Shown here: positions 13,301 through 17,486 of the stretch, piece after piece | How the letters are laid out: each line of letters starts with the position of its first letter | How positions within the stretch are numbered: position 1 is the first letter of the stretch | IMG/VR virus record: IMGVR_UViG_3300025502_000011 | Direction: 5' to 3' (one strand) | From: a virus | DNA length: 64,000 nt | Position numbers and translations under genes: made by a program | Notes under the pieces: generated by a model | What the model was told of the DNA's origin: nothing | Database searches by the model: none | The model's input: the letters and a program-made list of their open reading frames with translations, nothing else

Positions 13301-13990
13301 TTAAAAAACTCTCTGTGTTAGTCTCTCAAATCCGTCCTTCCATGTTTCGTGTTTATCAAATCTTTCACCACAACCAGTGGTTCCACCTTTCCAGCTTCCT
13401 CTTCTCTTTCCTACTTCTGAAGAGAATTCAACGTCAATTGTACGACTCACTTGGCTGAACATAGTTGTTCGTTTGAACCATCTCATTCTCCATTCTCTCT
13501 CCGAGATGGATATATCGGCATTAACCACGTTCAGTTCTCCATTTGGAGTGTGCTTATCAACATACGGCATATTAGTTCTCCACATTTTCTCTTTCCATTC
13601 GTCTTTATAAAAGTCTTGTTTGTCGCCTTTTATTGAATGAACCCATGTTCCATCCTTCAGTTTAATGCTGTGGCGAACGTGGTCGAGATTCCAGGGCATA
13701 TTAATGTATTTAGATTTCTTTCCGTAACGAATAACAAAGCTCTGACTCTGCCAACCATCCTGATACCAATAACAGCCGTACTGTTCTGAGTCGCCGTAAT
13801 CCTTTCTCTTGTGTGACCAGGGCATACTCCAAAACAGGCTCCAGAATAGGAATGCTATATGGATTTGGGGTCTCTCATCATCAGAATACCCGTGGCACTC
13901 GTAAGTTAAGTGAAAAGCAACTGGTTTTCCCCAGCTGTATCTATAAAATGATATATTATCGTTTTCAAACTTCTTTGTGGGGTTTCGCAT
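13301..13990 (-). CDS. Phage hypothetical protein
   Basis: 229-aa ORF. Confidence 0.7.
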   Translation of the reverse strand: MRNPTKKFENDNISFYRYSWGKPVAFHLTYECHGYSDDERPQIHIAFLFWSLFWSMPWSHKRKDYGDSEQYGCYWYQDGWQSQSFVIRYGKKSKYINMPWNLDHVRHSIKLKDGTWVHSIKGDKQDFYKDEWKEKMWRTNMPYVDKHTPNGELNVVNADISISEREWRMRWFKRTTMFSQVSRTIDVEFSSEVGKRRGSWKGGTTGCGERFDKHETWKDGFERLTQRVF

Positions 13991-14062
13991 TCTACAAATG
14001 TAATCAATTTTACAAATATAAAAACTGTTCGAAGGGCGGCCTTTTTCTATCTGTAATTCAAG

Positions 14063-14134
14063 AGGGGCGTAGGGGGTTCGAACCCCTGACGTACAGGGTT
14101 AAAGCCTGATGTTCTACCTCTGAACTAACGCCCC
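14063..14134 (-). tRNA. tRNA with anticodon UUA (ochre suppressor)
   Basis: GGGGCGT-TA-GTTC AGAGGTA GAAC-A-TCAGG CTTTAAC CCTGT-ACGTC-AGGGG TTCGAAC CCCCT-ACGCCCC-T; canonical cloverleaf with a 7-nt anticodon loop. Confidence 0.88.
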
Positions 14135-15106: not shown

Positions 15107-15510
15107 GGCAAGTGACCATATTTATGAAAATACTTTAATGGACGTTTCAATTTTCCATTAATCCAAAAACCCCATTTTCGTCGTGGCTTAAACGCTAATA
15201 CAAATGTCCAGCAAGACACATCTTTAGGAAGCACTACATTATGTATATGTTCTGCTTTTCTAAAGCGAATGCTTCCTTGTCTTAACTTATCGATTCCATT
15301 TGGGCTTATGTCTAAATAGCCTCCTTTCAGTATGAAAGTGATAAAATCCCAAGCATGGTCATGCTGGTGCGCGATTGGTTCACTTCTTATGAAGTTGTGA
15401 ACTCGGAACGAAAATAAGTAGAAATTGAACACCCATCTGTAAGCATACGGGCAACTTTTTTCACCTAAAGCTTCGTTCCATCTGAACTGAATTGGTCTGA
15501 ACTTTTTCAT
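15094..15510 (-). CDS. Cupin-like protein
   Basis: HQHDHAW.F...ILKGGY and H.HNV motifs. Confidence 0.7.
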   Translation of the reverse strand: MKKFRPIQFRWNEALGEKSCPYAYRWVFNFYLFSFRVHNFIRSEPIAHQHDHAWDFITFILKGGYLDISPNGIDKLRQGSIRFRKAEHIHNVVLPKDVSCWTFVLAFKPRRKWGFWINGKLKRPLKYFHKYGHLPCED

Positions 15511-16019
15511 TTCTTGATTCGGATTATAGCTGAGGGTACAGTTTTGTAATCCTCAACAAATGAATAATCTGGGACCATTGTCACGGAGTAGTTCTTATCT
15601 TGAAGCCACTCACGGAATTCTTTGTGCAGTTAAGTCTCTCCAACCATCCAAAAAGGAGATGTTAAGCTTGAGATTGTTCCGCCTGGTGCAAGTTGGTCAT
15701 ACATGTGCATGATGTGTTTGCAATCGACATTGTCTCGAAAGTTAGGACAGGCAATGACGTAATCATATGGTGTCTGGGCTTCGAATCGGAAGAAGTCTGA
15801 GCCAACCAACTCATATTCTTTTTCTTTCAGTGTGACTCGGCATTCTTGATTAAGTTCTACACAGTCAATTTTACACTGTTGGAATTTTTCTTGAACCCCG
15901 TCCGCCAATACTCCTGTGCCTGCAGATGGTTCTAGTATTCTCGCTCCAGGCTTCGGGTTTAATCTCTCACATAAAGCATCAATCACCACTTGGGGTGTAA
16001 TTCTGTTTGTCTCTACCAT
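15507..16019 (-). CDS. SAM-dependent methyltransferase with an internal in-frame TAA (15630-15632)
   Basis: ILEPSAGTG, VELN, ACPNF; past the TAA the frame continues LHKEFREWL...VPDYSFVED..TVPSAIIRIKK to a TGA overlapping the next ATG. Confidence 0.8.
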
Positions 16020-16458: not shown

Positions 16459-16601
16459 TCCTGGAGGAAGGGCTCGAACCCCCGACCCCCACCGTTCGAT
16501 TCCAATTCTCTACTTCACAACCCTTGTGGCCACGCAGGTTGCGTTTCAATCCTTTTCCTCATTTATCAGGGTGGTGCTCTAACCAACTGAGCTACTCCAG
16601 G
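16459..16601 (-). tRNA. tRNA-Ile(GAU) with a 69-nt insertion at position 37/38
   Basis: CCTGGAG/CTCCAGG acceptor and canonical D and T arms; removing 16495-16563 restores CCACC CTGATAC GGTGG. Confidence 0.8.
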
Positions 16602-16605
16602 AAGT

Positions 16606-16650
16606 GCCGCTAACAGGAATCTCACCTATTCTAGTGCTAATGCAAGCGGC
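16606..16650 (-). ncRNA. Mini tRNA-like RNA, family A copy 1
   Basis: GCCGCT-TGCATTAGCACTAG-AATAGG TGAGATT CCTGTT-AGCGGC. Confidence 0.75.
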
Positions 16651-16651
16651 G

Positions 16652-16731
16652 TGGTGGTGAGGGAAGGACTTGAACCTTCGACCTCCAGGGTTTTAAAGCC
16701 TGGTGCTCTGAACCAACTGAGCTACCTCACC
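16652..16731 (-). tRNA. tRNA with a 9-nt anticodon loop (CUUUAAAAC)
   Basis: GGTGAGG/CCTCACC-A-CCA; CCAGG CTTTAAAAC CCTGG; canonical D and T arms. Confidence 0.8.
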
Positions 16732-16735
16732 AAGA

Positions 16736-16780
16736 GGCCCCAGGAAGACTTTCTCTTCCTCTAGTGCTAATGCAGGGGCC
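16736..16780 (-). ncRNA. Mini tRNA-like RNA, family A copy 2
   Basis: GGCCCC-TGCATTAGCACTAG-AGGAAG AGAAAGT CTTCCT-GGGGCC. Confidence 0.75.
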
Positions 16781-16781
16781 G

Positions 16782-16835
16782 TGGTGGCGTGGGAAGAAAC
16801 GAATCTCCCGCGAATCCCTAATGGACTCTCACGCC
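16782..16835 (-). ncRNA. Mini tRNA-like RNA, family B copy 2 (CCA encoded)
   Basis: GGCGTG-AGAGTCC atta GGGATTCGC-GGGAGA TTCGTT TCTTCC-CACGCC-ACCA. Confidence 0.7.
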
Positions 16836-16871
16836 TTTTTTAAATTCCAACACGTCAATGAACTTTTGTTG

Positions 16872-16945
16872 TGACAGGAGAAAGATTCGAACTCTCGTCC
16901 CCAGGTTTTTAAGGCCTGGTGCTCTAACCGCTGAGCTATCCCGTC
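16872..16945 (-). tRNA. tRNA with a 9-nt anticodon loop (CCUUAAAAA)
   Basis: GACGGGA/TCCTGTC-A; CCAGG CCTTAAAAA CCTGG; T-arm GAGAG TTCGAAT CTTTC. Confidence 0.8.
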
Positions 16946-17045: not shown

Positions 17046-17066
17046 GTGATATGGAAACCTGCATCA

Positions 17067-17486
17067 TCATGCGGCTTCTTTACAATTACAACTCTTGAGA
17101 GTTGGTTGATTCGTAAATTCTTTGAAAGCAAGTGGTAGACTAGATAACCAACGGGCAGATTCTTTCCCTGGTTCTACGGTAATAGACGTGAACTGGTTGT
17201 CGAGGTCAGGCTCCTGGAAGGAACTGAAATTAATACCTTTTTGCGTGAGTTTGTCTCGGAGCTCGATGAGTTCTTGCTCGTCTTTGACTGATAAGAATCC
17301 TAAATATGGATTCGATAACCATTTTTCATAAATGGCTGTGTATTCTTGATTGAATACGTGGAATGAATGCATTCCTTGAGTTGCCTGCGCTCCAGGAGCG
17401 AGGTCTCGTCTTACGACGATGTAAAGCTTTAAGTTTTTCTTCTCTGTAGAAGGGTGTACTTACTGGTTGTCTAATGCTTTTTTCAT
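17067..17486 (-). CDS. Peptidyl-tRNA hydrolase II (PTH2)-like protein with an in-frame TAA at codon 9
   Basis: MKKALDNQ*VHPSTEKKNLKLYIVVRRDLAPGAQATQGMH...LSVKDEQEL...FQEPDLDNQFTSITV; ends TGA TGA. Confidence 0.8.

Follow-up and report, generated by a model that had tools for sequence, protein, structure and literature searches.

Results and Discussion

An interrupted reading frame

The locus considered here raises the question of how a jumbo phage could produce a small conserved protein when a stop codon lies between the start codon of its gene and the domain that the gene encodes. The locus is found in a 64,000-nucleotide stretch of IMG/VR virus record IMGVR_UViG_3300025502_000011, referred to as the window; the source record is 141 kb long and ~64% complete according to CheckV, with a G+C content of 38% and nearly all genes on one strand. 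A peptidyl-tRNA hydrolase (Pth2)-like gene on the minus strand opens with a leader (17463-17486) consisting of the ATG at 17486-17484 and seven further sense codons (MKKALDNQ), followed by an in-frame TAA as codon 9 (17460-17462), the proposed gate, after which the next codon is GTA, with a purine at position +4. Behind the TAA lies the 130-codon body of the gene (17070-17459), in which the first strand, KLYIVVR, occupies residues 11-17 and is followed by 113 more codons, and the frame closes with the tandem terminators TGA TGA (17064-17069), which a UUA anticodon cannot read. Under table 11, the ORF that is obtained is 101 codons long and starts at ATG 17372.

The first-pass annotation had placed ATG 17486 in frame with that ORF and 114 nt upstream of its start, with TAA as codon 9, no ATG, GTG or TTG between the TAA and the first strand, and TGA TGA at the end of the gene. 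Minus-strand translation establishes this anatomy in full, and the absence of the three start codons extends over all ten codons from the TAA to KLYIVVR. The leader is atypical in having 8 codons compared to the usual 2-4 in relatives, and it has no clear Shine-Dalgarno (SD) sequence. A promoter and terminator scan identified promoters no better than chance, and the window, used as a DNA query against the phage collection, returned only matches of tRNA size.

Since a lone early stop resembles a fresh nonsense mutation and gene callers report the 101-codon ORF, it could be argued that the gene is a decaying pseudogene, that the TAA is a sequencing error, or that the truncated product from Met 17372 is the real one. 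We regard these explanations as hardly tenable. The letters across 17460-17462 are identical in contigs from four other salt-lake sequencing runs, and the TAA is therefore not an assembly error; the truncated product and the pseudogene are addressed by the protein fold and by the relatives, respectively.

Fold and catalytic residues

The post-TAA product matches the Pfam PTH2 profile (PF01981) with 29.4 bits against a cut-off of 23, over profile positions 1-103 of 115, and the match begins at residue 10 after the TAA and at position 1 of the profile. In contrast, the product starting at Met 17372 scores 19.1 bits, which is under the same cut-off. An AlphaFold2 model of the post-TAA protein, built on an alignment of 43 family members, has a pLDDT of 91.6 and a pTM of 0.82, and Met 17372 falls in the middle of helix 1. 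In a Foldseek search of the PDB, each of the 14 best-ranking entries is a Pth2 structure (E 4e-7 to 1e-4), with target-length-normalised TM-scores of about 0.62-0.76, mostly 0.69-0.76, and the family profile also matches Pth2 chains in the PDB (best 2zv3, E 2.6e-10). These results demonstrate that the phage protein has the same fold as archaeal and eukaryotic Pth2 (PF01981; 2zv3, 3erj, 1wn2, 1xty, 1q7s). Four residues that are invariant in the family (R17, D19, Q25 and Q28) are encoded after the TAA but before the first downstream Met. Because the first strand and these residues precede Met 17372, a folded Pth2-like protein requires translation through the TAA. The expectation in the first-pass annotation that the downstream Met would cost the first strand was thus correct, and the Met-17372 form also lacks the four invariant residues.

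The phage family shares with Pth2 a Q..H motif in helix 1 and an acidic-then-Thr motif in the last strands, while its invariant set (R17, D19, Q28, H31, W47, E83-P84-D85 and T91) is unlike that of Pth2. The catalytic Lys of Pth2 belongs to a G-K-G-K loop and is Lys18 in the Sulfolobus protein. The profile alignment to solved Pth2 structures (2zv3/3erj) upholds the earlier suggestion that this canonical residue is replaced (GAQA): the catalytic Lys of GKGK becomes Tyr in the family and Ala in the window, where the stretch reads PGAQATQ, and the Gly-Lys loop of the phage family is two residues shorter than in Pth2. In the D-A-G region of Pth2, the phage family has the invariant E83-P84-D85, although the alignment does not settle which acidic residue corresponds to the catalytic Asp that precedes the last strands. 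PTH2 genes in jumbo phages are already on record (Iyer et al. 2021, PMC7824862), and that study mentions neither an early stop nor a suppressor tRNA for them. Unlike known Pth2 genes, the phage gene is joined to a suppressor tRNA and to a proposed stop-codon gate.

Conservation of the early stop

Taken alone, an in-frame ATG a short distance before a stop is common by chance, and the significance of the early stop therefore depends on its conservation across the family. The closest relatives detected by tblastn occur in very large uncultured phages; all four of those examined have TAG two or three codons after the ATG, and two of the four have tRNA(CUA) genes in the 3-kb flank. The family set comprised 85 loci, including eighty IMG/VR loci, which formed 63 clusters at 90% identity. 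An in-frame stop located 1-14 codons ahead of the first strand was found in 75 of the 85 relatives (56 of 63 clusters), and none of these 75 loci has a canonical start after the stop. The distance from the upstream ATG to the stop is 2 codons in 33 of 61 contexts, 3 codons in 17 and 4 codons in 8. An early in-frame stop is likewise present in almost all of an additional 67 metagenome loci. The first-pass annotation had held that homologs lacking the stop would refute suppressor-gated translation of the gene, and this case did not occur. In addition, the position of the stop is kept among relatives sharing only 35-50% identity, with an intact conserved frame behind it, which argues against a decaying pseudogene. 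The conservation of the early stop across the family is thereby demonstrated.

The early stop is TAG in 72 loci, TAA in the window and locus L011, and TGA in L084. Among TAG-type loci, TAG constitutes 8% of ordinary terminators (44/550) compared to ~96% of early stops. TAG-gated genes terminate in TAA or TGA, never in TAG, while the TAA-gated genes of L011, L142 and the short-contig pair L199/L200 end in TAA (in L011, as TAA-x-TAA) and are thus exceptions to the pattern that the cognate tRNA is unable to read the terminator of the gated gene. At least 7 loci, belonging to two groups (L001/L006/L008/L040/L137/L139 and L053), contain a second TAG inside the domain, and no restart could rescue those genes.

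The pattern extends to a cultured phage, Tenacibaculum phage pT24 (L086), which carries an early TAG in the context ATG AAA TAG ATA (L086 3949-3960). The corresponding GenBank CDS, BPT24_235, begins at an internal Met, with the frame opening 130 nt upstream, and a tRNA(CUA) gene lies 2.5 kb upstream; in the numbering of LC168164, this tRNA occupies 191520-191593 and the early TAG is at about 194090. A profile search of 1.84 billion representative proteins identified 1,798 clusters at E <= 1e-10; among the best 150 of these, the start is plain in about half, the call is truncated in 45, and 18 open with M-x-Q-I/V. The two M-x-Q-I/V proteins that were checked can be translated only with TAG read as Q. 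A scan of genome contigs yielded 5 loci, mostly on large contigs resembling phage DNA binned into MAGs.

Pairing of the stop with a suppressor tRNA

The window encodes a tRNA with the anticodon UUA, an ochre suppressor, at 14062-14134 on the minus strand (ARAGORN; 66.2 bits with the Rfam tRNA model). This gene is on the same strand as the Pth2-like gene and 3.0 kb downstream of its end, not adjacent to it, and it is the only suppressor among the 15 tRNAs that ARAGORN identifies in the 141-kb record. Directly 3' of the Pth2-like gene, at 16459-16945 on the same strand, ARAGORN and Rfam identify a tRNA array that contains no suppressors, in keeping with the earlier statement that the gene heads a tRNA operon. 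Two of the array tRNAs (16652-16731 and 16871-16945, minus strand) have the anticodon UAA and a length of 75-80 nt, without the long variable arm of bacterial tRNA-Leu, so that their identity is uncertain, and the third (16459-16601, minus strand) contains an insert of ~70 nt. The gene just downstream of the suppressor tRNA (13301-13990, minus strand) matches Pfam Acb3, a CBASS inhibitor, with an E value of 7e-34.

Across the family, the type of early stop matches the anticodon of the neighboring suppressor tRNA. The TAG/CUA combination accounts for about 100 loci, TAA/UUA for three (the window, L011 and L142) and TGA/UCA for two (L084 and L182), and none of the family loci examined combined an early stop with a nearby suppressor of a different type. 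In L142, the early TAA is accompanied by a tRNA(UUA) 1.8 kb downstream, and in L182, the early TGA is accompanied by a tRNA(UCA) 1.2 kb downstream. L011 comes from a 675-kb genome with 39 tRNA matches, one of them below the family cut-off, in which the only suppressor reads TAA. In 50 of the 56 early-stop clusters, a cognate suppressor is encoded no more than 8 kb away, which supports the claim that the early stop co-occurs with suppressor tRNAs, and a suppressor is the nearest tRNA in 42 of the 53 clusters that have any tRNA nearby. Both the match between stop and anticodon and the linkage of the gene to the tRNA are thus observed directly, and suppressor-gated translation, as first proposed for this gene, is supported by the family test, in which no refuting case proved general.

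The three UUA tRNAs show no resemblance to one another, and the window does not group as the sister of L011 in a poorly resolved tree, which points to a probable multiple origin of the ochre pairing. We also considered and rejected co-inheritance of one suppressor tRNA family with the gene, as the 71 distinct suppressor tRNAs are very diverse. No identity element shared by these 71 tRNAs was seen, and the inserted residue therefore cannot be guessed from them. Many related loci (L005, L008, L012, L014, L016, L018 and others) contain a pair of adjacent tRNA(CUA) genes that differ from one another and have dissimilar acceptor stems.

In the plain-start members L123, L124, L125, L127 and L128, a tRNA(CUA) gene begins no more than ~100 nt from the end of the Pth2-like gene or overlaps it. 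Since members with a plain start still adjoin a suppressor tRNA, the basic unit seems to be the gene together with the tRNA, to which the early stop is frequently added. In L123 (2464-2541) and L124 (516-588), the final 10-14 nt of the Pth2-like ORF also form part of the suppressor tRNA gene, and a cut at the 5' end of the tRNA would consequently take off the stop codon of the mRNA. Among the genes that neighbor it in related loci are those for IF3, a Thg1-like enzyme, a CCA-adding-type nucleotidyltransferase and a small RF-1-domain (ArfB-like) protein, and these loci constitute a translation-repair neighborhood. Searches of the window's own ~64%-complete record for an RF-1 domain and a CCA enzyme found none.

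Possible restart after the stop

An alternative that needs no suppressor is that the leader is translated as a mini-ORF and terminated, after which translation restarts at the next codon (ATT, ATA, GTG or ATG). Several observations are consistent with this possibility. The stop is followed by ATT in 39 of 61 distinct contexts, and ATT accounts for 39 of the 44 Ile codons after the stop compared to 52% expected from codon usage, so that some AUU restart cannot be excluded; in addition, 12 related phage loci carry IF3 genes. The mycobacteriophages Bxz1 (L117) and Phabba (L118) have a start-TAG-GTG arrangement, with an SD 7 nt before the GTG, and L123 reads ATG ACG TAG ATG. However, restart leaves unexplained both the choice of TAG, at 8% of terminators, and the tracking of the stop type with the anticodon of the neighboring tRNA. 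Moreover, the codon after the stop is GTA in the window, where no start codon occurs in the ten codons before the first strand, and GGC, GGA, AAA, AGT, AAC or GGT in other loci, and the second TAGs within the domain cannot be bypassed in this way.

Initiation at a non-canonical codon after the stop had also been named as a refuting case in the first-pass annotation. As a general explanation it fails, as the SD visible in 19 contexts lies 6-9 nt before the upstream ATG and so serves that codon, but Bxz1, Phabba and L123 do have a start immediately after the stop. We read these three phages and the ATT excess as lineages in which the gate has been bypassed, or as a low basal level of restart. 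It is mainly on their account that restart is retained as an explanation of the family, and overall we judge it improbable.

In Bxz1 and Phabba, both cluster C mycobacteriophages, the ATG/GTG-TAG-GTG sequence (2471-2479 in each locus) precedes a gene annotated as 'peptidyl tRNA hydrolase', gp154 in Bxz1, the SD is spaced for the GTG, and a tRNA(CUA) gene is located 130-300 nt downstream. Cluster C mycobacteriophages represent a tractable system for studying the gate. An amber or ochre initiator tRNA was likewise considered and rejected, since the suppressor tRNAs do not have three consecutive G:C pairs in the anticodon stem (judged by eye) and second TAGs occur within the domain.

Genetic code and a second interrupted gene

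The possibility that TAA is a sense codon throughout the genome, or throughout a block of genes, with the Pth2-like gene being one recoded gene among many, is raised by the presence of a suppressor tRNA and of an in-frame TAA in two nearby genes, and crAss-like and Lak phages provide known examples of block-wise recoding. Against this, TAA ends 62 of the 111 long minus-strand ORFs in the window's genome (56%), from which it follows that the genome is not recoded, and coding density is full under table 11. Furthermore, the stop in relatives occupies one conserved position and is not scattered. Recoding of a block or of the genome is thus very unlikely to account for the gene, and its whole-genome form was rejected, since ORF statistics under four codes and terminator counts show no sign of it.

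The second nearby gene with an in-frame TAA is a SAM-methyltransferase-like ORF (15507-16019, minus strand), 1.4 kb from the Pth2-like gene, with TAA at codon 130 (15630-15632). The frame consists of an ORF at 16019-15630 and a further 40 codons past the TAA, ending at a TGA that overlaps the ATG of the next gene. When used as a query, this frame identified 165 phage records with a place covering at least 80% of it; among the matches listed, homologs align as a single piece over residues 8-170, and beyond the stop the alignment retains a conserved KEFREWL motif and conserved last strands. The letters of this region are identical in contigs from other runs. The methyltransferase is therefore likely to be a second client of the ochre suppressor, although the TAA sits in a variable loop and gives no help with the inserted residue. 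When every readthrough extension in the 141-kb record was scanned for codon usage, no other clear case of TAA readthrough emerged, which also argues against recoding. Elsewhere in the record, outside the window (~97900-99400, plus strand), ORFs with good codon usage are split only by in-frame TGAs.

The relatives likewise give no sign of general recoding. ORF coverage of their flanks rises from 0.77 to 0.835 when TAG is read as sense, with no advantage over the control in which TGA is taken as sense (0.82). By strict criteria, 40 Pth2-like genes show the early-stop pattern and other ORFs remain at background (15 TAG, 16 TAA and 13 TGA), and two apparent extra early-stop genes, in L028 and L032, proved to be duplicated Pth2-like 5' ends. 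In these two loci, endonuclease-like ORFs (L028:1703-2452, with an HNH motif, and L032:5160-5966) are fused to the duplicated 5' end, which includes the ATG-x-TAG leader. Both ORFs immediately precede the intact Pth2-like gene, an arrangement reminiscent of the insertion of a homing endonuclease into that gene.

Proposed mechanism

We consider it likely that the window contains the ochre version of a widespread phage cassette in which the Pth2-like gene is made through readthrough of the TAA by tRNA(UUA), although there is no experimental support as yet. A ribosome would start at ATG 17486 and meet the TAA at codon 9, where release factors and charged tRNA(UUA) would compete. If the tRNA won, the Pth2-fold domain would be translated and termination would take place at TGA TGA, which tRNA(UUA) cannot read; otherwise, an 8-residue peptide would be released. 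The amount of Pth2-like protein would consequently track the activity of the suppressor tRNA, and a gate at the very start of the gene would entail little waste and leave no truncated domain behind. The protein is thus probably made only when the suppressor tRNA is working, a statement made without RNA or protein data, as none of the listed sequencing runs is recorded as RNA. That the tRNA is made, charged and reading the stop is an inference. Since TAA is the main terminator and an efficient ochre suppressor would lengthen most phage proteins, suppression must be weak or timed.

The function of the protein is also inferred. It may hydrolyse the peptidyl-tRNA or N-blocked aminoacyl-tRNA produced by suppression, or act on the suppressor tRNA itself. 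The plain reading is that it supplies extra peptidyl-tRNA hydrolysis capacity while stops are being overridden, with the reservation that the catalytic Lys is absent, and the recycling of tRNAs from ribosomes stalled by suppression, which the first-pass annotation had put forward, remains plausible, with both role and catalysis unproven. A further possibility, which we hold to be unlikely but not negligible, is that the protein is a governor of suppression and not a general recycler, its synthesis gauging the tRNA against the release factors and the enzyme hydrolysing the same tRNA in its aminoacyl or peptidyl form. Such a role would explain why the gene and the tRNA travel together even without the early stop, why the classic catalytic Lys has been replaced, and how an ochre suppressor is tolerated in a phage that ends most of its own genes with TAA. 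If this were true, the two-gene cassette would act as a self-limiting module that overrides one stop codon and follows a prfB-like logic.

Comparison with known systems and implications

Phage suppressor tRNAs, and the use of TAG or TGA as sense codons in late genes, have been described in crAss-like, Lak and other phages (10.1101/2021.08.26.457843; PMC9523058). As in those phages, translation of a phage gene is proposed here to hinge on a stop-reading phage tRNA. However, the genome of the window keeps the standard code with TAA still as its main terminator, a single fixed stop is located at the start of one small conserved gene (in addition to the methyltransferase), the stop type varies with the anticodon, and the gene is physically joined to the tRNA. 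The text of the recoding preprint (10.1101/2021.08.26.457843) does not contain the term 'peptidyl-tRNA hydrolase', the huge-phage paper does not mention the Pth2-like gene, and no published description of a cassette of a stop-gated Pth2-like gene and a suppressor tRNA was found in the literature.

There are also bacterial precedents for translation factors whose mRNA bears the signal that their own pathway acts on, so that synthesis reports the state of decoding. Release factor 2 (prfB) is autoregulated through an in-frame UGA and a +1 frameshift, sensing its own product, and IF3 (infC) is autoregulated through an AUU start. The phage gene differs from prfB in that in-frame decoding by a tRNA is proposed in place of the +1 frameshift, and feedback has not been established. 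The leader additionally resembles the lambda bar minigenes (AUG AUA stop), which are toxic when Pth is limiting, as in most relatives it forms an ORF of two to four codons with a stop ahead of a Pth homolog. Nevertheless, the leader in the window has 8 sense codons and is not a bar-type ORF of two or three codons, phage leaders are in frame with the enzyme and their stop type follows the suppressor tRNA, and there is no evidence of toxicity or drop-off.

The window is the rarer, ochre version of the cassette, and what is new in it is the occurrence of this form in a TAA-terminating genome, together with the long leader, the distant tRNA and the second TAA-interrupted gene. The ochre form is of interest because TAA is the main terminator and suppression has to be low or timed, and a hydrolase whose synthesis tracks suppression would be a natural candidate for that control. 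Gene callers hide the gate, either by reporting a truncated gene, as in the GenBank record of pT24, or by taking TAG as Gln. The gate can be tested directly in cultured phages. Many large phages with a standard code carry suppressor tRNAs that have no known target, and the cassette supplies one, a conserved gene that apparently depends on the tRNA to be read and whose stop codon shifts with the anticodon; if the proposed reading is right, it would constitute a natural suppressor-gated switch within the translation toolkit of phages.
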